Numbered from the stretch's first letter, positions 1,985 to 24,279 are shown. The stretch is DNA of 24,279 bases from a virus (IMGVR_UViG_3300045988_060429), one strand, 5' to 3'. Notes: generated from the sequence alone by a model not told the origin. Numbers and translations are program-made.

Positions 1985-3456
1985 CAGATACAGCGTTATC
2001 TCCTGAAGAGCAGTTAATCGAGGATATTGCAGGGTTCACTCACGATCCGCTTGGCTATGCCCTCTATGCGTTCCCGTGGGGGGAAGAGGGGACTGAACTG
2101 GCACATGCTACTGGTCCAAGAAGCTGGCAGAGGTGGATGCTTGACACTGTTGGCAAGCACCTCAGAAATCCAGATACACGCCATCAGCCACTGATGATTG
2201 CAGTTTCTTCAGGCCACGGAATCGGGAAAAGCGCAGGTATCTCCATGTTGCTGAACTGGGGAATGTCCACTTGCGAAGACTGCAAAGCAGTAGTCACTGC
2301 CAACACTGAAAATCAGTTGCGCACCAAAACTTGGCCAGAAGTGATTAAGTGGGCAAACCTGTCCATCACGAAAGACTGGTTCTCGACCCCGGCAACAGCG
2401 ATGTACAGCAATGATCCGGGGCACGATAAGCGCTGGCGCGCTGATGCTATACCGTGGTCTGAGCATAACACCGAGGCATTCGCCGGGCTGCACAACGAGC
2501 GTAAGCGGATTATCGTGGTATTCGACGAAGCGTCTAATATTGCTGATAAGGTTTGGGAGGTTGCCGAAGGTGCGCTTACTGACGAAGACACCGAAATCAT
2601 TTGGGTAGCGTTCGGAAACCCGACTCGTAACACCGGGCGATTCCGTGAATGTTTCCGCAAATACAAACACCGCTGGGTCACAAAGCAGATCGATAGCCGA
2701 ACCGTAGAGGGAACCAACAAAGAGCAGATCCAAAAATGGATTGAAGACCACGGTGAGGATAGCGACTTCGTTAAAATCCGTGTGCGCGGCATATTCCCTG
2801 ATGCATCTGAATTGCAGTTTATCCCTACCGGTCTTACTGACGAGGCAATGAAACGGGTGGTAACTGCTGCGCAGGTGGCACATGCTCCGGTGATAATCGG
2901 TGTTGACCCGGCATATTCAGGCGTTGATGACGCGGTGATATACCTGCGGCAGGGGCTACACAGTAAGGTGCTATGGACTGGTAACAAGACCACCGACGAT
3001 CTGATTATGGCGAAGCGTATCGCTGACTTTGAAGACCAGTATCAGGCTGACGCGGTGTTCATCGACTTCGGTTACGGAACCGGGCTGAAGTCAATCGGTG
3101 ACGGCTGGGGGCGCACATGGCAACTTGTTCCGTTCGGTGGCGCGTCTACTGACCCGCAGATGCTCAACAAGCGTGGGGAGATGTTCAACTCATGCAAGAC
3201 ATGGCTGAGGCTGGGCGGCATGCTGGATGACCAGGAAACAGCGGACGATCTGTCGGCGGCAGAGTACAAAGTTCGAGTGGACGGTAAAATCGTTATCGAA
3301 CCGAAGGAAGATATCAAGGAGCGGCTTGGGCGTTCTCCGGGGAAAGGCGATGCGTTATTGCTGACGTTTGCTTTCCCTGTGTCGAAACGCCTGCGAATTC
3401 CCGGGCAGCAGAACCAGCAAGGCAAGGCCATCACAGATTACGATCCCTATGCTTAA
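1981..3456 (+). CDS. terminase large subunit
   Basis: 491 aa, GTG start overlapping the terS stop (GTGA). Walker-A-like SSGHGIGKSAG near the N-terminus. Position after terS. Confidence 0.85.
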   Translation: MTDTALSPEEQLIEDIAGFTHDPLGYALYAFPWGEEGTELAHATGPRSWQRWMLDTVGKHLRNPDTRHQPLMIAVSSGHGIGKSAGISMLLNWGMSTCEDCKAVVTANTENQLRTKTWPEVIKWANLSITKDWFSTPATAMYSNDPGHDKRWRADAIPWSEHNTEAFAGLHNERKRIIVVFDEASNIADKVWEVAEGALTDEDTEIIWVAFGNPTRNTGRFRECFRKYKHRWVTKQIDSRTVEGTNKEQIQKWIEDHGEDSDFVKIRVRGIFPDASELQFIPTGLTDEAMKRVVTAAQVAHAPVIIGVDPAYSGVDDAVIYLRQGLHSKVLWTGNKTTDDLIMAKRIADFEDQYQADAVFIDFGYGTGLKSIGDGWGRTWQLVPFGGASTDPQMLNKRGEMFNSCKTWLRLGGMLDDQETADDLSAAEYKVRVDGKIVIEPKEDIKERLGRSPGKGDALLLTFAFPVSKRLRIPGQQNQQGKAITDYDPYA

Positions 3457-3495
3457 TCCGCTGGTGGGGATAATGTCGTTGATATCCTCTGGTGA

Positions 3496-3530
3496 GGATA
3501 AAACAAAGCCAGCTCATCGGCTGGCTGTTT
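3496..3530. terminator. hairpin terminator between convergent terL and the minus-strand gene
   Basis: Stem AGCCAGC / GCTGGCT (3507-3526). The minus-strand side has a T-rich run (TTGTTTTATCC); the plus-strand side has only GTTT. Confidence 0.55.
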
Positions 3531-3542
3531 GTGACATGTCAC
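3531..3542. repeat. perfect 12-bp palindrome GTGACATGTCAC, copy 2
   Basis: Exact string at 3531-3542, 4 bp from the terminator stem and 5 bp from the stop of the minus-strand gene. Confidence 0.9.
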
Positions 3543-3546
3543 GGTG

Positions 3547-3903
3547 TTATTGCTCGCTTAACTTCTGCTTCAGCAAGTAACCTTCGAGCATCCAGATTTT
3601 GTTTACAGCATTCTGCCGGGCAATCTTCCGACCAATTTCTGCATCAAAATTTTCCGGACTTGCACAGGCACTCTCTCCGGTGACGGTGAAGCCATTCTTC
3701 AGTACCAATACGCAGAAAGTCAGGAGGTCTGTAGATTTATGCGCTGTCCATGAATCGCCAACGCCCATATTGGCAGCACGAATGCCGTCATAAGCAGTAA
3801 AGAAATGCTCTTCAAGAATGATGCTTTCGATATATTGAGGCGTAACTCGCGGAGCGGTTTTGCCTTTCTCAACGATTTCTTTTTCGATTTGCTGGTCGTT
3901 CAT
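3547..3903 (-). CDS. conserved phage hypothetical protein (118 aa)
   Basis: ATG preceded by AAGGTGAG. Compact protein with a terminator downstream. It feels like a widespread small enterophage family but I cannot name it reliably. Confidence 0.55.
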   Translation of the reverse strand: MNDQQIEKEIVEKGKTAPRVTPQYIESIILEEHFFTAYDGIRAANMGVGDSWTAHKSTDLLTFCVLVLKNGFTVTGESACASPENFDAEIGRKIARQNAVNKIWMLEGYLLKQKLSEQ

Positions 3904-3913
3904 AATCTCACCT

Positions 3914-3938
3914 TAAAAAAATGCCCGGCGAACCGGGC
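3914..3938 (-). terminator. rho-independent terminator/attenuator just upstream of the 118-aa gene
   Basis: On the minus strand: stem GCCCGG / CCGGGC with loop TTCG, then ATTTTTTT. The SD and ATG of the 118-aa gene follow immediately. Confidence 0.5.
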
Positions 3939-4012
3939 GAACTGGAAGCAATGAGTTATGCCTTCCGTGGCTGTACTGGTTTACAGCATGAAGTCATCGC
4001 AATGGCGTCCTG

Positions 4013-4058
4013 CTGTAAAAAGGGCGGTGATAGTCCTTCAAGGGAAACCATCACCGCC
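4013..4058 (-). terminator. terminator-like hairpin downstream of the tRNA
   Basis: On the minus strand: 9-bp stem GGCGGTGAT / ATCACCGCC with an 18-nt loop, followed by CTTTTTAC. Confidence 0.4.
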
Positions 4059-4101
4059 AAGCCCCTGGAACTTCTGGCATCACGGTCCTTAGGCGTGATT
4101 C

Positions 4102-4178
4102 TGGCGTGGCATGCAGGATTCGAACCTGCGACCAACCGCTTAGAAGGCGGTTGCTCTGTCCAACTGAGCTAATGCCAC
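4102..4178 (-). tRNA. tRNA-Arg, anticodon UCU (argU-like)
   Basis: Reverse complement folds by hand into a cloverleaf: acceptor GTGGCAT / ATGCCAC, D-stem GCTC / GAGC, anticodon stem ACCGC / GCGGT with loop CTTCTAA (U33, anticodon TCT, A37), T-arm GCAGG-TTCGAAT-CCTGC, discriminator G and encoded CCA. Confidence 0.85.
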
Positions 4179-4500
4179 AACGCTGAGAGCACTTAGCCTG
4201 TTAAGGCGCCACACTTTGTCGCGGCTCCATAAATGCTCTCATCGTTGTACCCTCGTCTCTTCCGAGGAGTCACACCGAATCGCCGGGATGGTGAATCCCC
4301 GTGCGCGGAATAAAACCGCTCGACTTGCACATTCCGGCTACCTGGTTCGTTTGCCCGAGCAAGGGAGGGTGCCCCTTAAACGTATCCAGACCGCTATCGG
4401 CGCATGTGCCATACGCCGTACTGCTCAAAATAAAAGCTAACTCCACCTGTTCAATTTAACGACAAGCCAGTCAGGTTAGTAACCGGAATGAACTCTTTGG

Positions 4501-4515
4501 TTACCTGAAAGGTAA
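4501..4515. promoter_or_regulatory. dyad TTACC-TGAAA-GGTAA upstream of the portal operon
   Basis: Exact 15-mer, identical to the copy at 23269-23283. The shared block extends to TTACCTGAAAGGTAATA, and CATATGTGGTT follows in both places. Confidence 0.5.
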
Positions 4516-4605
4516 TAATTTGTGCGTTAAATGTCAACTACCTACGATAAATAAATCATATGTGGTTAAATTGGTAATAATTTAATTGCGTACGGAGTCA
4601 TTGAT

Positions 4606-4812
4606 ATGTGCATGGGTAGCTCACCATCAGTGCCTGCAACACCAGAAGTTCAGGCAGCACCACAGGAGCAGGATGCCGCCGTTGTTGATGCCCGCGACGA
4701 AGAAACTCGTCGCCGTCGCGCTGCTGCTGGTCGTAGTTCTACGCTGCTTACCGGTTCTCAGGGCGACACATCAACCGCTAATACCAGCGGTAAAACGCTG
4801 CTTGGTCAGTAA
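4606..4812 (+). CDS. hypothetical small protein (68 aa, low complexity)
   Basis: Its initiation region CGGAGTCATTGATATG is nearly identical to that of the portal gene (CGGAGTCATTGAAATG), which favours this frame over the overlapping 4586-4825 ORF. Confidence 0.4.
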   Translation: MCMGSSPSVPATPEVQAAPQEQDAAVVDARDEETRRRRAAAGRSSTLLTGSQGDTSTANTSGKTLLGQ

Positions 4813-4826
4813 CCGGAGTCATTGAA

Positions 4827-5138
4827 ATGGCGGAAACAACTAAAGAGCGATTGAACAAACAGTTCGCACAACTTGAAAGCGAGCGTCAGTCGTTCGAGCC
4901 GCACTGGCGCGAGTTGAGTGATTACATCAACCCGCGTGGTTCCCGCTTTCTGACTTCTGAGGTCAACCGTAACGATCGACGCAATACACGCATTATTGAT
5001 TCGACCGGGACTATGGCGGCGCGCACTCTCGCCAGCGGCATGATGTCAGGCATCACAAGCCCCGCGCGTCCGTGGTTTCGCCTGGCTACGCCAGATCCTG
5101 AAATGATGGATTATGGCCCTGTTAAGTTGTGGCTTTAG
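4827..5138 (+). CDS. portal/head-tail connector protein, N-terminal segment ending at an in-frame TAG
   Basis: Same frame as 5154-6506. Reading through TAG at 5136-5138 gives one protein of about 559 aa. Confidence 0.6.
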   Translation: MAETTKERLNKQFAQLESERQSFEPHWRELSDYINPRGSRFLTSEVNRNDRRNTRIIDSTGTMAARTLASGMMSGITSPARPWFRLATPDPEMMDYGPVKLWL

Positions 5139-5153
5139 GCGGGGCAGAACCGC

Positions 5154-6506
5154 ATGAACGATATGTTCAATAAGTCGAATCTCTACCAGTCTCTTCCGCA
5201 GTTATACGGAAGCCTCGGCACATACAGCACTGGTGCAATGGCGGTGCTGGAGGATGACGAGGACATCATTCGCACAATGCCATTCCCGATAGGCAGTTAC
5301 TACCTGGCTAACTCACCTCGTGGCAGTGTGGACACCTGTTTTCGCAAGTTCTCTATGACTGTTCGTCAGCTTGTTCAGGAGTTCGGGCTAAATAACGTCA
5401 GCGAATCCGTAAAAAGCATGTGGGAAAGCGGCACCTACGAGAAGTGGATTGAAGTGATGCATTCGGTTTACCCGAACATTGACCGCGATACATCGAAGCT
5501 GGATAGCAAGAACAAGCCATTCAAATCGGTTTATTACGAGGTTGGTGGCGATAACGACAAGTTGTTGCGTGAGTCCGGATTCGATGAGTTTCCAATTATG
5601 GCTCCGCGCTGGGAAGTTAACGGCGAAGATGTTTATGGATCATCATGCCCGGGTATGCTGGCGCTTGGATCTGTTAAGGCATTGCAGCTTCTTCAGAAGC
5701 GCAAGTCGCAGTTGATTGATAAAGCCACCAATCCGCCGATGGTTGCTCCGACTTCCCTCAAGAATCAGCGTGCCTCCCTTCTTCCTGGCGACATCACGTA
5801 TATCGATCAGATTACTGGTCAGGATGGTTTCAGGCCTGCTTATCTGGTTAACCCCAGTACAGCAGATTTGGTGGCAGACATTCAGGACACTCGTCAAATC
5901 ATTAACAGCGCCTACTTTGTCGATCTGTTCATGATGTTGCAGAACATCAATACCCGCTCGATGCCTGTTGAAGCGGTGATCGAAATGAAAGAAGAAAAAC
6001 TTCTGATGTTGGGGCCGGTTCTGGAGCGTCTGAACGACGAATGTCTTAATCCTCTCATTGACCGCTCTTTCTCGATGATGGTGCGTAAAAACATGCTGCC
6101 GCCACCGCCAGACGTGATGGAAGGTATGCCCCTGAAGGTCGAATACATTTCCGTCATGGCTCAGGCGCAGAAGTCTATCGGCCTGTCCAGTCTGGCGTCC
6201 ACGGTTAACTTCATTGGTCAACTTGTGCAAGCGAAACCAGAAGCTATCGACAAACTCAACGTTGATCAGGCGATCGATGCATTCGCTGATATGTCCGGAG
6301 TGTCTCCAACCGTCATTGTTCCGCAGGAACAGGTTGAGCAGGCTCGCCAGCAACGGGCACAGCAACAACAGCAGCAACAAATGATGGCGATGGGGATGGC
6401 GGCGGCACAGGCTGCCAAGACGCTAAGCGAAGCTAAAACTTCGGATCCGAGTGTTTTGTCAGCTATGGCGAATGCAGTTAGTGGTCAGGGTGGGCAATCA
6501 CAATGA
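5154..6506 (+). CDS. portal/head-tail connector protein, C-terminal segment
   Basis: The Q/A/M-rich C-terminal tail (QARQQRAQQQQQQQMMAMGMAAAQAA) strongly resembles the tail of T7 gp8 as I remember it. Lies between terminase and scaffold. Confidence 0.7.
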   Translation: MNDMFNKSNLYQSLPQLYGSLGTYSTGAMAVLEDDEDIIRTMPFPIGSYYLANSPRGSVDTCFRKFSMTVRQLVQEFGLNNVSESVKSMWESGTYEKWIEVMHSVYPNIDRDTSKLDSKNKPFKSVYYEVGGDNDKLLRESGFDEFPIMAPRWEVNGEDVYGSSCPGMLALGSVKALQLLQKRKSQLIDKATNPPMVAPTSLKNQRASLLPGDITYIDQITGQDGFRPAYLVNPSTADLVADIQDTRQIINSAYFVDLFMMLQNINTRSMPVEAVIEMKEEKLLMLGPVLERLNDECLNPLIDRSFSMMVRKNMLPPPPDVMEGMPLKVEYISVMAQAQKSIGLSSLASTVNFIGQLVQAKPEAIDKLNVDQAIDAFADMSGVSPTVIVPQEQVEQARQQRAQQQQQQQMMAMGMAAAQAAKTLSEAKTSDPSVLSAMANAVSGQGGQSQ

Positions 6507-19500: not shown

Positions 19501-19949
19501 GTATCCAGCAGGGCGATGCTGCATTCTATCTTGGTGCGCTTGGCACGATTGCGCTTGGCTCAATGGTCTATATGATGAAACAGAAGTTAAGCGGTCGCGA
19601 TATCGACTACAGCTGGAATAACCTTGTGAAAGAGGGGATCGACCGGGGCGGAATGCTTGGCTGGCTCTCTGAGCCGCTGAATACCGTTGAGAACATAAGC
19701 GGCGGTAGGTTTGGTCTTGGCGCGATGTTTGGTGCGCCTCCGGTATCAAGGTTTCAGAGTCGTAATGCTATTGGTGCTTTACTTGGTCCTACCTTTGATC
19801 TTGGCGGTGATGCCGCGACGGTTGCGAATGGTGTGCTTAACGGAGAATTTGACAGCCAGCAAACCCACGCGGTCCGTAAAATGCTACCTTTTCAGAACCT
19901 GTGGGCGATATCACCGTTACTAAATAAAGTTGAAGAGCAGATGAAATAG
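16560..19949 (+). CDS. internal virion/DNA-ejection protein (gp16-like), 1129 aa
   Basis: Gly/Ala-rich hydrophobic segment (GGAGTISSLAMGMIDPVNVAAMFIPVGAVARGG...), long helical charged regions, and last position in the core-protein block. Confidence 0.6.
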   Translation: MPIYEQDPKELLGEDIQQIAAPDDSNFYMETPSLLSAVNPFTSDQRVQRSRQAAFRIDNTLGSFIASAPFSQFDRVEGYNPFDNDAADIKGYEDFADSFINSGSHEETMAIKHRIDKQRTDREYLSEMGGAGTISSLAMGMIDPVNVAAMFIPVGAVARGGSIAETAGRFALANAAGGGVSEAALQATQEARSPMESVSNVVVDALVGGILGAGAQLLSGPSAREAVVNSVGNHLRGMDSPQSIGAAQVFNTTLDQEQLAGLGLVNKTLSVTPAGRLAQSPSLVSRQINQQLAENNYFFAKNDEGLATFTAVETKIKQYDAMLYKQMEATRDAYQQYSKSVSARGVKRMNFIDFNEAVGMAMRRGDQSDIPEVSQAAARIRPIFETTKARMQELGILPEDIDVVTAKSYLPRIYKFDKILSDRTEFRGRIANWIQGISAKSADKAGQRIERINSLLKTAEESAPRADALASEIAEAEKWSGKKILLMEELDKRNKLISQETDTQARLTRIEKELAETSSEKLQARMMKESSDLKTRLDDIAQAKSELPVYQRHMELLDNPRKYRSELRRLQKRANSTTRLNASRERALKQMEPLSREEAEDAADEIVNKIIGAPSGLVPADIIPERLVGRAGFTKSRTLLIPDERIEDFLESDVNYIMESYLRQVAPEIELTAQFGRKDMGEQIRQVSEEYTRLIKEAKTPKRRAVLEKQREADIRDITAMRDRLLGTYGAPQDPRGFFVRAGRVARNINFLRLLGGMTVSAATDLMRPMMQHGLRKSLGPMVSMLKNMDSVKIATRDLREMAVGLDYVLSTRTKAIADLTDPYSRRSAAERGLNWMTQKFGNWTLMNQWNSALKSWSGMIVQSRILDAARQVSAGGTLSKSEMRKMAQVGINEDVLRRIGEQFGKHGEDMDGLLTGHSHLWDDRFAREIFQSAVLKDVDSVIVTPGVGDTPLFFSKEGWKMITQFKTFIFAQHNRVLVSGIQQGDAAFYLGALGTIALGSMVYMMKQKLSGRDIDYSWNNLVKEGIDRGGMLGWLSEPLNTVENISGGRFGLGAMFGAPPVSRFQSRNAIGALLGPTFDLGGDAATVANGVLNGEFDSQQTHAVRKMLPFQNLWAISPLLNKVEEQMK

Positions 19950-20390
19950 CTATTCACAATTAGTGATGGCGTATGTATCAAATATATTGCCATCACTAAA
20001 TACATACCTATACTCAATCTCTCCGCCAAGGTGAATAAATGCTTTCATTTGCCTGTTGGAGCAAATGCTCGATTTTGAATAATTTCGCATTACACTCTTT
20101 AATTTATTTTCTAAGGTTACATCACCATTATAAACTTTTGATAAATAGCTGTTGTTGTAATTAAGATGCGCTACAACTAAAAGTTTGTTTAGTATTGCAT
20201 TTATTGAAACAATAGACATATTATCATTCAATTTTATGGGAAGTGACTTTCCTGCTTCTGATGCGATTTTGTTTGCATGTGCACACATATCCTCATTTAT
20301 TAAATTCTTAAAACATATGTCGTTTGCAAACGAAAAAATTGGTAGGATAAACAAAACGGTAGCTGTAATAGCGTGCATCGGCTTAATCAT
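19950..20390 (-). CDS. secreted/periplasmic protein of unknown function, AT-rich (146 aa)
   Basis: N-terminal signal-peptide-like sequence MIKPMHAITATVLFILPIFSFA with a probable cleavage after SFA. The gene is visibly lower in GC than its neighbours. Confidence 0.5.
   Translation of the reverse strand: MIKPMHAITATVLFILPIFSFANDICFKNLINEDMCAHANKIASEAGKSLPIKLNDNMSIVSINAILNKLLVVAHLNYNNSYLSKVYNGDVTLENKLKSVMRNYSKSSICSNRQMKAFIHLGGEIEYRYVFSDGNIFDTYAITNCE
19961..20007. repeat. interleaved inverted repeats at the end of the late operon
   Basis: TAGTGATGGC (19961-19970) pairs with GCCATCACTA (19989-19998). GTATGTAT (19971-19978) pairs with ATACATAC (20000-20007). Confidence 0.6.
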
Positions 20391-20402
20391 TAGGTGACCT
20401 TT

Positions 20403-20852
20403 ATGTTCAAGAAGATGATCAACAGATTAATCGGTGGTAAGGAGGTTAGCAATAAAATTCAACCTCTTATCTTTAAGGATAACTTTTCAGCTTTTGAGTA
20501 TGCGTGTAAGTATCTTGACACAAGCCTTTCAGCCAATAAACCAATGCCAGCCATCATCATACCTGGTCCCAGTGGGGAACAGCCAGTTTTGCTAGATTCT
20601 GGAAGACAAAGGGCAATGCTGAAGGTGTGCTCAGCTGATGGTGGATTTTTTGTTATTGCCGATTCATCTTACAGCAAAGGACCAAAGCTGAGGATTGGTG
20701 ATCTTGTTGCTTGGTTGCCTGTGAGTTATGCCGAAGAATTAACGGATAAAATAGAAGATCCTCGCTCCGCTATGGTTGGCTTTATATTGGGAACCATTCA
20801 TCCTGAACTAACATCTACTGGCTGGAAGGGTAAAGAAAGATTTCGCAAGTAG
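20403..20852 (+). CDS. hypothetical protein (about 149 aa)
   Basis: ATG at 20403, 6 nt after AGGTG (the track's 20394 start is GTG). Divergent from the secreted-protein gene, with start codons 12 bp apart. Ends 1 bp before palindrome copy 3. Confidence 0.5.
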   Translation: MFKKMINRLIGGKEVSNKIQPLIFKDNFSAFEYACKYLDTSLSANKPMPAIIIPGPSGEQPVLLDSGRQRAMLKVCSADGGFFVIADSSYSKGPKLRIGDLVAWLPVSYAEELTDKIEDPRSAMVGFILGTIHPELTSTGWKGKERFRK

Positions 20853-20853
20853 C

Positions 20854-20865
20854 GTGACATGTCAC
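20854..20865. repeat. perfect 12-bp palindrome GTGACATGTCAC, copy 3
   Basis: Exact string at 20854-20865, abutting the terminator stem at 20867. Confidence 0.9.
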
Positions 20866-20866
20866 A

Positions 20867-20890
20867 GGCCGCTTTCGCGGCCTTGTTTTT
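20867..20890 (+). terminator. rho-independent terminator at a convergent junction
   Basis: Stem GGCCGC / GCGGCC with loop TTTC, followed by TTGTTTTT. The stop of the minus-strand peptide gene overlaps the T-tract. Confidence 0.6.
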
Positions 20891-21050
20891 AACGAATGCC
20901 ACCGCCACCCGGGCGGGAATCCGCAGAACGCCCACCGCAGCGGGAGCCGTCAGCAGCAGTGTCGCTGTCGTGCTGACAACGACCGGCAAAGGCCTGAGTT
21001 GAAGCTACCAGAGACAACAAAACGAACAGTGCAGCAAATGCTTTTTTCAT
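20889..21050 (-). CDS. small secreted peptide (53-aa precursor)
   Basis: MKKAFAALFVLLSLVASTQAFA is a classic signal peptide with an AFA-G cleavage site. The predicted mature part is a 31-aa Gly/Arg-rich peptide with two Cys. There is no lipobox. Confidence 0.45.
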   Translation of the reverse strand: MKKAFAALFVLLSLVASTQAFAGRCQHDSDTAADGSRCGGRSADSRPGGGGIR

Positions 21051-21120
21051 TGTGAAATTTCCATCTATAAGCCACCTCAATGTGGCGTCAATGAGTGTAG
21101 CACTGACTTTTGTTTCGTCC

Positions 21121-21145
21121 ACAAAAAAGCCCGCGCTGCGGGCTT
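21121..21145 (-). terminator. rho-independent terminator after the 210-aa gene
   Basis: On the minus strand: stem AAGCCCGC / GCGGGCTT with loop AGC, followed by TTTTTTGT. Confidence 0.6.
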
Positions 21146-21148
21146 CTA

Positions 21149-21781
21149 TTAATGCAGTTTATCTTTGCTTATAACCAGTAGTCTGTGGGTATGCACATCT
21201 TTATCACTGCCCCAACAGAAATCAGCCCACTGGCTATAGAAATCATCCCATGATGTCATGAAGCTAAGAGGTCTATCTTCTTCAGAGCCATCTGAAACGT
21301 ATACATTATATCCTGGGGTGTTTATAGCCCAAGAAATCATTCTTTCCCAGAATCTTCTCCCATCGATTGTTTGTTGCTCATCAGATACAACGATCGCATA
21401 TTGCTCTAGGAAGAACTGAAAAAAAATCTGAGGCAAACCATGAACAGCACGGTCATGAATAACATTAGGCGTACGCCATACCATGATCTGCGTACATGTT
21501 CTTTTGGCTTCGACGATATCTTCCCGAAAGATTAACTTAACCGCATACACCGTTTCTGGAGTATCGCTGGTAGTAATCATTCTGTAATGATCGCCATTAC
21601 AAGATTTTACAAGGCGATAACCATAAGGTGTTGTGAATCCCGGAAGAACGAAATCAACCACACCTTTCGCTAAGTAGCTTTCGGTGTGACTAGTGTTCTT
21701 CTCAGACATGTTCAGTTTTCTATCGAAATCTGCTTCTGGGATAATGTATGGCATCGCTTTTCTTGTTGTATTTGTTCTCAT
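21149..21781 (-). CDS. hypothetical protein (210 aa)
   Basis: Strong SD (GGGAGGA) 5 nt before the ATG. Own candidate promoter upstream and terminator downstream. No family recognised. Confidence 0.6.
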   Translation of the reverse strand: MRTNTTRKAMPYIIPEADFDRKLNMSEKNTSHTESYLAKGVVDFVLPGFTTPYGYRLVKSCNGDHYRMITTSDTPETVYAVKLIFREDIVEAKRTCTQIMVWRTPNVIHDRAVHGLPQIFFQFFLEQYAIVVSDEQQTIDGRRFWERMISWAINTPGYNVYVSDGSEEDRPLSFMTSWDDFYSQWADFCWGSDKDVHTHRLLVISKDKLH

Positions 21782-21840
21782 TTCGTCCTCCCATGTTTGG
21801 CTACAGGACGCGTTTTGAAGGGAAGATTAAAAATGCTTTC

Positions 21841-21855
21841 TTACCCTTGAGGTAA
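21841..21855. promoter_or_regulatory. dyad TTACC-CTTGA-GGTAA in the leader of the 210-aa gene
   Basis: Exact half-sites. It lies immediately downstream of the candidate -10 element of that gene. Confidence 0.45.
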
Positions 21856-21883
21856 TAGTACGCTATTCACCCCCAGTCTGCAA
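21855..21883 (-). promoter_or_regulatory. candidate sigma70 promoter for the 210-aa gene
   Basis: On the minus strand: TTGCAG, 17-bp spacer, TACTAT, about 75 bp before the ATG. Hexamers are only moderate matches. Confidence 0.3.
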
Positions 21884-21927
21884 TCTGTACAGAATTATTT
21901 AAAGGCACATCCCTGTGCCGCCGCCCG

Positions 21928-22620
21928 TCAGAAGAACCCTGCCTTGTCGTTGATGTATTCCGCGTGGGTCTGGATATCACGCAGGCATTTACTCACACCG
22001 ACGATGTAGCAGAACATGGTGGTCACCTCCGCCGCCGCGCCCGATACGTCGTGCCCGTCTTCCTGTAACTGGTTCAGCAGATTCATCAGCAGTGAGTTCT
22101 CCGTCAGGCCGAGAACACCAGACGGCGAATGAATCAGGCTGCGGTAGCCGGGCTTCAGTGGGGCGCTGTAGGTTTTGTTCTCTATCTTCATCGCCTGCAT
22201 TACTGCTGACGCCGTGGCGTTGGCTACCTGGTCGGCAACCATCTTTATGCGTTCTTCCTGCGGGAGCGAGTTTTTAATGTAACTTCCGGTGCGGCGGATC
22301 TGAGGAAGAACCTCACCTGTAACCCATTCAAGAAATCTGAATGCTCTCGTTCCCTCAGTCATTGCCTCTTTGCAACGCAGAATAAGGATGTAGAGACCTG
22401 ATTCTGAAACGATGGATAGTTCTTGTATTCCACCAGGGGTCTGTATTGAATACAGCCCCTTTTTGTTCCAGCCTTTTTTATCAAGTTTTCTCGCTTGTGT
22501 AACATCAATATTCAAAGCATTGCACACATCTTTGGTGACAAACCAAGGTTCTCCGTCAATCATGAACATACGGATCTGGCAGGATGACTCAAAGGAAAAG
22601 ATGGAAGGTTTGGTATTCAT
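21928..22620 (-). CDS. Bro-N domain protein (antirepressor-like), about 230 aa
   Basis: FSFESSCQIRMFMIDGEPWFVTKDVCNALNI...SESGLYILILRCKEAMTEGTRAFRFLEWVTGEVLPQIRRTGSY is a clear Bro-N signature. Start moved to the ATG at 22620 (AAGGTG upstream); the track's 22665 start has no SD. Confidence 0.75.
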   Translation of the reverse strand: MNTKPSIFSFESSCQIRMFMIDGEPWFVTKDVCNALNIDVTQARKLDKKGWNKKGLYSIQTPGGIQELSIVSESGLYILILRCKEAMTEGTRAFRFLEWVTGEVLPQIRRTGSYIKNSLPQEERIKMVADQVANATASAVMQAMKIENKTYSAPLKPGYRSLIHSPSGVLGLTENSLLMNLLNQLQEDGHDVSGAAAEVTTMFCYIVGVSKCLRDIQTHAEYINDKAGFF

Positions 22621-22887
22621 GGCGATCACCTTTGTAGTTAGGTTAATCACCACCGCTGAGACCAATCAGATGGTGGTGAACTGTGCAGAGTTGGTCTTAC
22701 CGGCTACAAAGGAACCCGGCGCACCTTTCGGTGCCCCCACACAGCCCACCATAGAATAGGTGCGCTTTACACATAAAAAAACCGCTTATGCGGCATATGT
22801 GCCTCTGTAGTAATCCGGGAGACCAATCCCGGCACTGGATTTTGCCAGTGCCCGATTACTATGGCACAAGAGGAGTGCGATGTAAAT

Positions 22888-22902
22888 TTACCGCAAAGGT
22901 AA
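22888..22902. promoter_or_regulatory. dyad TTACC-GCAAA-GGTAA in the intergenic region between the small paralog gene and the Bro-N gene
   Basis: Exact half-sites, inside a stem-loop-rich non-coding stretch. Confidence 0.45.
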
Positions 22903-22933
22903 ATATAAGCACTCCATTTGGTAATTTCAAACC

Positions 22934-23191
22934 TTATCTGGTTTGTTTTCGTAATTGTTCGGCACAATAGTCGAGATGTGTTTGCAGATCCTGCATAGAC
23001 ATCTGTGAGCTGGTGACGTAGTTAATCAGTGCAGTCAGTTCGGCAAGTGGGCCATCGACATTAAATCCATCCTTATCGAGATCCCGGAGTAATTTCATCA
23101 AGTGCGATCCCTCCACCAGTGACCTGACGCCTCCCGGCGTGTGAATCCTTTCGGTAAATCCCTCTTCCAGTGGATAGTGATACTGCTGCAT
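22934..23191 (-). CDS. small protein paralogous to the C-terminal domain of the Bro-N protein; candidate SOS-controlled antirepressor
   Basis: By-eye alignment with the Bro-N C-terminus gives roughly 35-40% identity (shared P-GV, L-E-S-LM-LL, DG--V-G, QTH--Y). Start ATG at 23191 sits 9 nt after GGAG. A LexA box lies 22-37 nt upstream. Confidence 0.6.
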   Translation of the reverse strand: MQQYHYPLEEGFTERIHTPGGVRSLVEGSHLMKLLRDLDKDGFNVDGPLAELTALINYVTSSQMSMQDLQTHLDYCAEQLRKQTR

Positions 23192-23211
23192 CTTAATCTT
23201 CTCCATGCAAT

Positions 23212-23231
23212 AACTGTATATTTATACAGTA
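23212..23231. promoter_or_regulatory. LexA (SOS) box AACTGTATATTTATACAGTA
   Basis: Core CTGT-ATATTTAT-ACAG at 23214-23229 fits the E. coli consensus CTGT-N8-ACAG with an AT-rich centre. Confidence 0.65.
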
Positions 23232-23268
23232 GCAAATAATTTGTTTGCTATCCAGCACGTTTTGCAAA

Positions 23269-23283
23269 TTACCTGAAAGGTAA
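23269..23283. promoter_or_regulatory. dyad TTACC-TGAAA-GGTAA in the divergent region between the small paralog gene and the tailspike
   Basis: Identical 17-mer to the copy at 4501-4517, followed by CATATGTGGTT at 23313-23323 (compare 4557-4567). Confidence 0.5.
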
Positions 23284-23387
23284 TATCTATTCGTATTCAC
23301 AGTCTTTTTATCCATATGTGGTTTTTCAGGTAATAGAATAACCAGATATGCGGCGCAACGGGTGCTGCGACTATCTGGAGATTTAAC

Positions 23388-24279
23388 ATGACGGTCTCAA
23401 CCGAAGTTGACCACAACGAATACACCGGTAACGGCGCTACGACATCATTTCCGTATACCTTCCGTATTTTCAAAAAATCCGACCTGGTTGTTCAGGTGTC
23501 TGACCTGAACGGGAACGTAACAGAATTGGTTCTGGATACCGGTTATACGGTAACTGGGGCGGGCACTTATAGTGGCGGTTCAGTGGTTCTTCCGTCTCCG
23601 CTTGCTGCTGGCTGGCGAATTACGATAGATCGTGTGCTTGATGTGGTGCAGGAGACAGACCTTCGCAATCAGGGGAAATTTTTCCCCGAAGTGCATGAAG
23701 ATGCCTTTGACTACCTGACGATGCTGATCCAGCAATGTTTTGGGTGGTTCAGACGCGCATTGATGAAACCATCTTTGCTTGCAAAATATTACGATGCAAA
23801 GCAAAACAAAATTTCTAACCTTGCAGATCCATCACTTGAGCAGGATGCTGTAAATAATCGCTCAATGCGTAATTATGTCGATGCTGCAATCGCCGGGGTT
23901 GTTGGTGGTTTTGGTTGGTTTATTCAGTATGGTTCAGGCGCGGTATATAGAACGTTTCAGGATAAGATGCGGGATAACGTTAACGCTCTTGATTTTGTTC
24001 CGTTTGAGCAAAGATATGCTGCATTAAATTTTGAAGTTGATGCGTCTGAATGGTTAATTAATGCGATAAATTCTGGTGCAAGTGTCGTTAGAATACCTGC
24101 AGGTAAATGGATGATTTCTAAGAACATAGATGTGCCTCCTGGAGTGTCTTTAATTGGTGATGGCATTGATTATTGGGATACATATAGACCAGCGCCTGAA
24201 AGATTATTAAAAAGTTGGAGTAAAGGAACCCATCTTGTATTTACTGGTGATGGAGAAAAAAACAAATATTTTTTTAACA
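23388..24279 (+). CDS. tailspike/tail fibre, N-terminal part (runs off the window end)
   Basis: ATG 7 nt after GGAG, open with no stop to the window end (297 codons). The N-terminus MTVSTEVDHNEYTGNGATTSFPYTFRIFKKSDLVVQV resembles the conserved particle-binding N-terminus of epsilon15/phiV10-type tailspikes (memory). From about residue 190 the sequence turns AT-rich. Confidence 0.7.
   Translation, partial: MTVSTEVDHNEYTGNGATTSFPYTFRIFKKSDLVVQVSDLNGNVTELVLDTGYTVTGAGTYSGGSVVLPSPLAAGWRITIDRVLDVVQETDLRNQGKFFPEVHEDAFDYLTMLIQQCFGWFRRALMKPSLLAKYYDAKQNKISNLADPSLEQDAVNNRSMRNYVDAAIAGVVGGFGWFIQYGSGAVYRTFQDKMRDNVNALDFVPFEQRYAALNFEVDASEWLINAINSGASVVRIPAGKWMISKNIDVPPGVSLIGDGIDYWDTYRPAPERLLKSWSKGTHLVFTGDGEKNKYFFN

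Follow-up and report, generated by a model that had tools for sequence, protein, structure and literature searches.

The stretch of viral DNA IMGVR_UViG_3300045988_060429 (24,279 nucleotides, hereafter the window) carries six genes between the gene of a 1129-amino-acid virion protein and the tailspike gene, which we designate A to F in the order of their coordinates. We are fairly confident that the 3.4 kb in question comprise two adjacent units, namely an antirepressor control region (21.9-23.39 kb) and a swappable cargo (19.95-21.8 kb). An earlier note on the window had regarded the whole as a single accessory island; this view suits the variable left half (A-D) but not E and F, which belong to the core regulation of the phage. 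Core regulation accounts for roughly one half of the "island"; the left half is the true variable cargo. The limits proposed in that note, 19950 and 23387, are exact, as the virion protein gene (labelled DUF919 or virion structural protein in relatives) ends at 19949 and the ATG of the tailspike gene is at 23388. The six open reading frames (ORFs) had also been placed correctly with regard to coordinates, strand, and size, and RefSeq lists the same genes in prophages that are nearly identical. Each of the six ORFs is intact and preceded by a plausible ribosome-binding site.

The backbone of the window is that of an epsilon15/phiV10-like podophage (Uetakevirus and relatives) of Escherichia coli, with matches to phiV10, TL-2011b, EC.W1-9, ZX5, and HEMP4. 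Matches to the region of the window were found as prophages in 572 of the 5426 complete E. coli genomes. A P22-like backbone was rejected, as the matches are epsilon15/phiV10-like and the P22 Ant domain (P22_AR_N) in E stayed below the threshold (E-value of 0.0043, 17.7 versus 30.7 bits). We compared the slot between the two structural genes across 74 loci, which were anchored on the C-terminus of the 1129-amino-acid protein and the N-terminus of the tailspike and came from IMG/VR, phage records, and E. coli genomes (the scan of IMG/VR gave 79 loci, used for the comparison, and that of genome contigs gave 2). The features of the control region are listed below, from the tailspike side leftward (nt, nucleotides).

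23269-23283, no strand assigned: operator TTACCTGAAAGGTAA between F and the tailspike gene; the same 15-mer recurs at 4501, before the head genes
23212-23231, minus strand: LexA (SOS) box TACTGTATAAATATACAGTT, ~20 nt upstream of the F start, 18 of 20 matches to the consensus
22934-23191, minus strand: F (Ant), 85 amino acids, matched by phmmer to PDB 5d50_E; the ORF is open up to 23206
22930-22902 and 22886-22858, minus strand: predicted promoter-like sites of the operon, TTGAAA-17-TATATT (the stronger) and TTTACA-17-CATAGT, respectively; the predicted start site of the latter falls at the 5' end of isrK
22888-22902, minus strand: operator TTACC-N5-GGTAA at the isrK promoter
22812-22864, minus strand: match to the c4-a1b1 motif (RF03163), overlapping isrK
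22775-22851, minus strand: isrK RNA (Rfam RF01394, 74.7 bits versus a gathering score of 50)
22820-22826 and 22802-22810, minus strand: decoy targets in isrK, a1 (UUGGUCU) and b1 (CUACAGAGG), respectively, assigned by complementarity to C4
22775-22794, minus strand: isrK terminator, a hairpin followed by U7
22669-22756, minus strand: gene of a C4 antisense RNA of the P1/P7 type (Rfam RF01695, 78.6 bits versus a gathering score of 45, model positions 1-87 of 87)
22621-22668, minus strand: leader of E with the C4 targets a2 (UUGGUCU, 22659-22665) and b2 (CUACAAAGG, 22629-22637)
21928-22620, minus strand: E, 230 amino acids, Bro-N domain at the N-terminus and Ant-like domain at the C-terminus
21893-21919, minus strand: weak terminator-like hairpin after E, GGCACA-GGGA-UGUGCC followed by UUUAAAUAAUU, no better than shuffles

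F aligned with chain E of PDB 5D50, the "Anti-repressor protein" of the epsilon15-like Salmonella phage SPC32H, over residues 2-84 of its 85 (phmmer, E-value of 1.6e-47) and is, judging from this alignment, an SPC32H-type Ant antirepressor, a kind already characterised. The earlier note had described F as a small paralog of the Bro-N protein encoded by E. The kinship is real, with 41% identity between F and the C-terminal 80 residues of E (E-value of 1e-20), but F is neither an unknown nor an accessory protein: it is Ant, and its gene was present in 69 of the 74 loci. F was the sole gene of the minimal slots of 470 bp. A LexA box matching the consensus at 16 or more of the 20 positions was found in 47 of the 69 loci with F, as compared with a median of 10 in control windows. 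In SPC32H, Ant is under LexA control. The Rep-Ant antirepression switch of that phage (PDB 5D50/5D4Z) was reportedly described by Kim and Ryu in 2013 and by Kim et al. in 2016. According to two articles (PMC9638917, PMC9986798), Ant acts as a tetramer that binds two dimers of Rep and takes the Rep tetramer apart. The repressor of the relative ZX5 is a homolog of SPC32H Rep (5d50_A, E-value of 4e-42); the window does not contain the early region, and rep lies outside it. Altogether, F is, as far as the sequence tells, the SOS-triggered induction switch of the prophage, and is core rather than accessory. Host LexA would keep F off, and DNA damage would lead to the production of F and to the inactivation of phage Rep by break-up of its tetramer. 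The stop codon of F (22934) is 4 nt away from the -35 element of the predicted isrK promoter (22930), with no terminator in between. SOS-induced F transcripts should thus run into isrK and raise the level of the short IsrK RNA, and such read-through may connect the two circuits of antirepression.

E had been recognized in the earlier note as a Bro-N protein, and the Pfam search agreed (E-value of 1.7e-13). Residues 149-225 of E match SPC32H Ant (5D50, E-value of 2.4e-13), and an Ant-like C-terminal domain recurred in slot proteins of the Bro-N type (48 of 54), the ANT type (6 of 6), and the Rha type (3 of 3), as well as in one P22-Ant-type protein. E is 80% identical to ORF4 of ZX5, and the C-terminal halves of the two are essentially identical. 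Overexpression of ZX5 ORF4 lowered lysogeny, scored as lysogen counts, by ~1000-fold (PMC9782041). We regard E as antirepressor-like, that is, a putative second antirepressor in which a Bro-N domain is fused to an Ant-like domain. The weak hairpin that follows E is conserved in relatives.

The gap of ~270 bp between E and F contains two RNA genes that the earlier note had overlooked, isrK and C4, both of which scored above the Rfam gathering scores. Nucleotides 45-53 of C4 (CCUUUGUAG, a hairpin loop, hereafter b') are complementary to b2, which overlaps the Shine-Dalgarno sequence of E, and nucleotides 60-66 (AGACCAA, a') are complementary to a2, farther upstream in the leader of E. The leader between C4 and E is only 48 nt long, and the ribosome-binding site at stake is that of E itself. 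C4 was found directly upstream of the antirepressor gene in the fourth position of the slot in 57 of the 74 loci, irrespective of the N-terminal domain of the antirepressor and even where the module was inverted. The 62 copies of C4 fell into 20 (b', a') types, among them alleles of other specificities such as CCACUUAG and CCUGUGAC, and in each type the leader and isrK carried the matching complements. Over these 62 copies, cognate b2 duplexes had a mean length of 8.4 nt versus 4.4 nt for non-cognate ones, and b2 always ended 7-13 nt before the ATG. The proposed operon would run in the order of promoter, isrK (with a1/b1), C4, and E, downstream of F and on the same strand. Processed C4 would pair with the leader of E at two short sites, one of them over the ribosome-binding site, and E would stay untranslated while C4 is present. 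The C4 of a resident prophage would also act in trans on an incoming phage of the same C4 specificity; by analogy, the 20 co-varying types resemble the heteroimmune pair of P1 and P7. Apart from these matters, a 38-amino-acid coding sequence annotated as "ash family protein" in ZX5 (positions 1779-1892 of its locus, L097) overlaps the C4 gene region and is probably a translation of the RNA gene; the C4 of the window contains a comparable ORF of 28 codons. Two complete isrK-C4-Bro modules with different C4 specificities were seen in opposite orientation in one locus (L083), and the module was inverted in two others (L034 and L038). Such doubled and inverted copies indicate that the isrK-C4-Bro module moves as a unit.

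The palindrome TTACC-N5-GGTAA occurs six times in the window (0.28 expected). Three of the six fall within the 3.4 kb examined here: one covers the promoter that precedes D, another is in the promoter region of isrK, and the last lies in the F-tailspike intergenic region. The complete genome of ZX5 has 14 copies (0.69 expected), which flank rep on both sides and precede the replication, terminase, portal, tailspike, and integrase genes. The spread of the palindrome in the window and ZX5 resembles the many dispersed C1 operators of P1. We regard the palindrome, from these positions, as a candidate operator of Rep. Across the 74 slots, it was found upstream of F (61 of 69), D (5 of 5), and two further cargo families designated c21 (5 of 5) and c7 (17 of 17), as well as isrK, and never upstream of A, B, C, families c4 and c14, or other genes of the first position. 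A scan of the 3.4 kb for direct and inverted repeats recovered operator-related repeats and otherwise only pairs at chance level. A further operator site region is at 1356-1388 of the window, and the sites precede the terminase, head, and tailspike genes. The flanks of the two identical 15-mers (4495-4560 and 23265-23340) share more blocks (CATATGTGGTT and GGTAATA), perhaps a common late-promoter element.

The slot varied greatly among related prophages, a point that the earlier note had raised for checking: its length was between 469 and 6502 bp, and the 74 loci showed 68 gene orders and, counting ORFs of 70 amino acids or more, 91 families. The note had also held that finding the same six genes in all related phages, with known structural or assembly roles, would speak against its view. 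This was not the case for A, B, C, and D, which were present in 13, 11, 18, and 5 loci, respectively, but F was near-universal. The slot is modular. The first position was occupied by A and B or by other genes, most of which encode secreted proteins or lipoproteins, the second by C, the third by D, a YafO-like gene, DUF4760, DUF2335 with a partner, or various orphans, and the fourth by a Bro-N, ANT-type, or Rha-type gene; the fifth is void in the window and holds other cargo elsewhere, and F stands at the end of the slot. The exact gene combination of the window was found in none of the 5426 complete E. coli genomes. The best-matching one has A, B, and C with the YafO-like gene in place of D, and the A-B pair and D were found in 14 and 93 of these genomes, respectively. 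In TL-2011b, the first cargo position is taken by a P22-type Arc-like repressor and a 314-amino-acid Ant (2789-3973 of its locus, L002). This Ant ends in an SPC32H Ant-like domain, so that the slot of TL-2011b encodes three Ant-domain proteins.

The features of the cargo half are as follows.

21883-21855, minus strand: predicted promoter of the third cargo position, TTGCAG-17-TACTAT; an operator at 21841-21855 overlaps the -10 element and the start site
21149-21781, minus strand: D, 210 amino acids, GNAT-like predicted fold, the single-gene cargo of the third position
21119-21147, minus strand: intrinsic terminator of D, hairpin AAGCCCGC-AGC-GCGGGCUU followed by UUUUUGUGG (-15.3 kcal/mol, z of -3.0)
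21057-21084, minus strand: promoter-like site of C, TTGACG-16-TATAGA, read by eye
20889-21050, minus strand: C, a 53-amino-acid secreted peptide with a signal peptide, a Gly/Arg-rich mature part, and two Cys
20866-20883, no strand assigned: G+C-rich hairpin between the convergent B and C; terminator of B (-16.5 kcal/mol and z of -3.65 on the plus strand), no U tract on the strand of C
20403-20852, plus strand: B, 149 amino acids, cytoplasmic, divergent from A; PGAP annotates the same start in relatives
19950-20390, minus strand: A, 146 amino acids, predicted to be secreted (periplasmic), with a signal peptide; convergent with and abutting the gene of the 1129-amino-acid protein

The window and a locus with the YafO-like cargo were identical through the terminator of E, the promoter, and the operator, and diverged right after GGTAA. 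This pattern suggests that the expression site of the third position is fixed and gated by the repressor, and that the cargo behind it, single genes or small operons, is exchanged. D would be made only when Rep is absent or inactivated, and it is thus probably expressed on derepression and not in the lysogen. A classical exclusion gene would have to be expressed while the prophage is quiescent, and the repressor-type operator in front of D argues against this.

D belongs to a family of 63 clusters from Enterobacterales, nearly all of which are 199-237 amino acids long (most exactly 210), and 29 residues are invariant down to 38% identity across many genera. Its predicted fold retrieved almost exclusively GNATs; in BFVD, the matches were uncharacterised phage proteins with a TM-score of 0.66 and NAT_SF proteins, and the structural relatives in other phages include one in a jumbo phage. 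In the loop SDEQQTIDGRRFW, D134, Q137, T138, G141, and R143 are invariant and sit at the strand-to-helix loop that corresponds to the coenzyme A (CoA) pyrophosphate loop in GNATs. Motif A is non-canonical (Q/R-x-x-G-x-G/A is absent), D has ~50 extra residues at the N-terminus and an inserted helical pair, and neither Pfam nor NCBIfam gave an acetyltransferase match at the sequence level. GNATs are known from phages and mobile elements, as exemplified by AcrVA5 and the TacT/AtaT toxins. Homologs of D were solitary on four phage backbones in all, including the tail region of a Serratia siphophage (next to a P22-type Ant/Arc pair), P1-like elements of Citrobacter, and a lambdoid phage, in which the gene follows the lysis genes. 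No adjacent antitoxin gene was found either in the window or in the other phages, and D is the only gene enclosed by the operator and the terminator. From the structure model, D would most likely be an acyl-CoA-dependent acyltransferase that serves the phage early in lytic growth.

A has four invariant Cys and belongs to PHROG 8772, a group of unknown function. Its remote relatives number 305, including fusions with LprI or Sel1 domains, and A occupies the same position in the slot, next to the virion protein gene, in prophages of Providencia and Cedecea. A tblastn search with A against 50,697 phage records found nothing. A counterpart of the periplasmic exclusion protein Sim, encoded beside immI in P1, was considered for A and set aside, and no homology is claimed. 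A toxin was likewise dismissed, the weak Ntox35 hit (14.6 versus 23.6 bits) being taken as noise. B belongs to PHROG 9944, also of unknown function, and has 13 clusters in 5.8 billion proteins, with 45 positions invariant at 56-99% identity. A and B occurred together in 11 loci and in Cedecea, with their arrangement kept. Only 12 bp separate the start codons of the oppositely oriented A and B (20390-20403). The promoter of either gene must therefore be inside its neighbour, and the two transcripts would overlap as antisense at their 5' ends, so that expression of A and B could be mutually exclusive. C is assigned to PHROG 14503 ("membrane associated protein") and was found only in epsilon15-like phages of E. 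coli and Klebsiella. None of the three has a Rep operator, and A and C are predicted to be exported; we suppose, with low confidence, that the lysogen expresses all three and that they have a conversion or exclusion function at the envelope.

The four proteins A-D had been noted to match no recognised family, and indeed PADLOC, Pfam, and NCBIfam gave no family for any of them, and no PDB sequence matched the profiles of A, B, and D. Variable presence and atypical G+C content, two hallmarks of morons, were found for A-D (G+C of 0.32, 0.42, 0.57, and 0.41 for A, B, C, and D, respectively, versus 0.495 for the late operon). As for the third hallmark, a promoter and terminator of its own, B and D have terminators, A has none, C is ambiguous, and D depends on a backbone promoter with an operator. 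The earlier note had assigned a terminator to each gene, which is correct for B (plus strand), D, and isrK; that of E is weak, none was found for A, and the hairpin next to C lacks a U tract. Terminator-like sites are enriched in the 3.4 kb (12 versus 4.4 +/- 1.9).

Elsewhere in the window, the late region is interrupted a second time, between the terminase and portal genes (3457-4826), where a tRNA-Arg(TCT) gene (4102-4178, minus strand) and a minus-strand ORF of 118 amino acids (3547-3903) are located. The portal gene (4827-6506) has an in-frame TAG at 5136-5138, at which the portal of ZX5 has Glu (PVKLWL*AGQNRM versus PVKLWLEAVQNRM in ZX5).

Several observations weigh against the division into a control region and a repressor-gated cargo as we describe it. 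Promoter-like sites, which the earlier note had assigned to the genes wherever it saw them, are not enriched (6 versus 8.0 +/- 3.3 in shuffles), and the timing of expression has been read off the sequence. The c4-a1b1 match remained below the gathering cut-off (39.9 versus 46.7 bits). The protein binding the palindrome was deduced from the site positions in ZX5, rep being outside the window. The start/stop overlap (AUGA) that couples orf45 and anrP in Gifsy-1 is absent, as the ORF within C4 stops 45 nt before the start of E. The AlphaFold model of B is poor, with a predicted local distance difference test (pLDDT) score of 56. Finally, the TAG in the portal gene may mean that this prophage copy is defective, or it may be a sequencing error or a strain-specific amber codon.

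The analogy with an immunity region holds, and a role in defence is possible for A, B, and C, albeit circumstantial and guesswork; it is less likely for D in light of the repressor gating, the relatives in other phages, and the late-gene positions. We thus consider it unlikely that the entire 3.4 kb are an accessory island with at least one hitherto undescribed gene, among A-D, for superinfection exclusion or anti-phage defence that the prophage expresses. The variability and atypical G+C content of A-D are in line with such an island, and so are the export of A and C together with the conserved, disulfide-type Cys of A, which would fit exclusion at the envelope, the YafO-like toxin family in place of D in alternative loci, and the lack of a repressor operator at A, B, and C, which could be on in the lysogen. 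However, E and F are core regulatory genes, D is behind an operator and has relatives in other phages and at late positions that suggest a lytic role, and no PADLOC (v2) model gave a hit, be it to A-F or to the 20 alternative cargo families examined. In the Pfam search, the latter yielded a YafO-like protein below the cut-off (annotated as YafO by NCBI), DUF4760, DUF2335, and DUF6236; DUF4760 appeared in one paper on an unrelated subject.

It is still less probable that D and the other cargo of the third position are toxins triggered by derepression which, once Rep is inactivated by DNA damage or by the antirepressor of an incoming phage, would kill or arrest the cell for abortive infection or the sabotage of competitors. 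The operator over the cargo promoter agrees with this idea, as does the choice of alternatives, which include the YafO-like mRNA interferase family and the small membrane proteins of DUF4760/DUF2335, and the GNAT toxins AtaT, TacT, and KacT are among the structural neighbours of D. Nevertheless, D is no more similar to these toxins than to other GNATs, it has no adjacent antitoxin, its homologs are encoded in late operons of other phages, and a toxin made on every induction would harm the burst of the phage itself. That A-D are merely decaying remnants in a slot tolerating junk is highly improbable. The nonsense codon in the portal gene and the rarity of A and B (14 of the 5426 genomes) may be taken in its favour, but the length and the 29 invariant residues of D, the four Cys of A, the 45 positions kept in B, the A-B arrangement kept in Cedecea, and the six intact ORFs all contradict decay. 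Within the two-unit reading preferred here, we can offer only as a doubtful extension that the third position draws on a repressor-gated pool of unrelated small effectors (D, YafO-like, DUF4760, DUF2335, and orphans), which would be fired upon derepression, that D represents a new and widespread acyltransferase family of phages for counter-defence or host takeover, and that A/B and C are new exclusion factors acting at the envelope.

The two-unit reading turns six "hypothetical" genes into a regulatory map, in which F is Ant, two RNA genes are added, and E would be a second antirepressor under RNA control. The 20 types of C4 and its targets are candidate orthogonal antisense pairs of natural origin and would help to predict which epsilon15-like prophages are heteroimmune. 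The cargo can also be sorted: A, B, and C, which lack an operator, may be on in the lysogen, and D and its alternatives are probably repressor-gated.

The cargo half can be compared with known moron positions. The bor site of lambda is an example of such a position. Like morons, A-D are genes of foreign G+C content placed between late genes, in opposite orientation and with variable content, and homologs of D are found in lambdoid, P1-like, and Serratia phages. Unlike them, the third position of the window does not seem autonomous and has a conserved promoter with a repressor-type operator, and its cargo has no known defence match. Positions 1 and 2 of the P2 morons are cargo sites with which the slot was compared (PMC3573123).

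The control half invites comparison with four systems. The earlier note had likened the slot to that of immI/sieA in P22, which agrees with the map position between the ejection genes and the tailspike and with the antirepressor and immunity functions, but the module is of the P1/Gifsy-1/SPC32H kind, and the backbone is not P22-like. In P22, immI consists of mnt, arc, and ant with the sar RNA. The antirepressor under antisense-RNA control, as well as the pair of Arc and Ant in the slot of TL-2011b, is reminiscent of this region. In contrast, neither Arc nor Mnt (RHH family) was found among the six proteins of the window, nor was a SieA-like membrane protein. The operon of isrK, C4, and the antirepressor gene E is conserved and is of the kind seen in P1 and Gifsy-1, not in P22.

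In Gifsy-1 of Salmonella, isrK precedes the antirepressor gene, serving as a leader and also exerting an effect in trans (PMC4825925). As in isrK-orf45-anrP of Gifsy-1, isrK in the window has its own terminator before the antirepressor gene, and transcription must read through it. With SPC32H, the window shares F, which aligns with Ant over 83 of 85 residues, its genomic place immediately upstream of and divergent from the tailspike gene (the position of gp19 in epsilon15), the upstream LexA box, and the Rep homolog in the relative ZX5; F itself shows no material difference, and the second, fused Ant domain of E and its RNA control are not known to have been described for SPC32H. As for P1 and P7, immI is described (PMC8198154, after Citron & Schuster 1990) as laid out a1b1-c4-a2b2, with C4 blocking translation and hence the expression of the antirepressor. 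In that operon, icd stands between c4 and ant1/ant2, and it is icd translation that C4 blocks. The window has no icd-like gene, E is unrelated to Ant1/2 of P1, and the phage is an integrating podophage, whereas P1 is a plasmid myophage. The window nonetheless encodes an RNA of the C4 family, the a' and b' of which would pair with a2 and b2, b2 being at the ribosome-binding site, with a1/b1 upstream and an antirepressor gene downstream; there are several specificity types, as in P1 versus P7, and the operator at the operon promoter would be that of the master repressor. Altogether, the control region is of a kind already known in principle, that of P1, Gifsy-1, and SPC32H.

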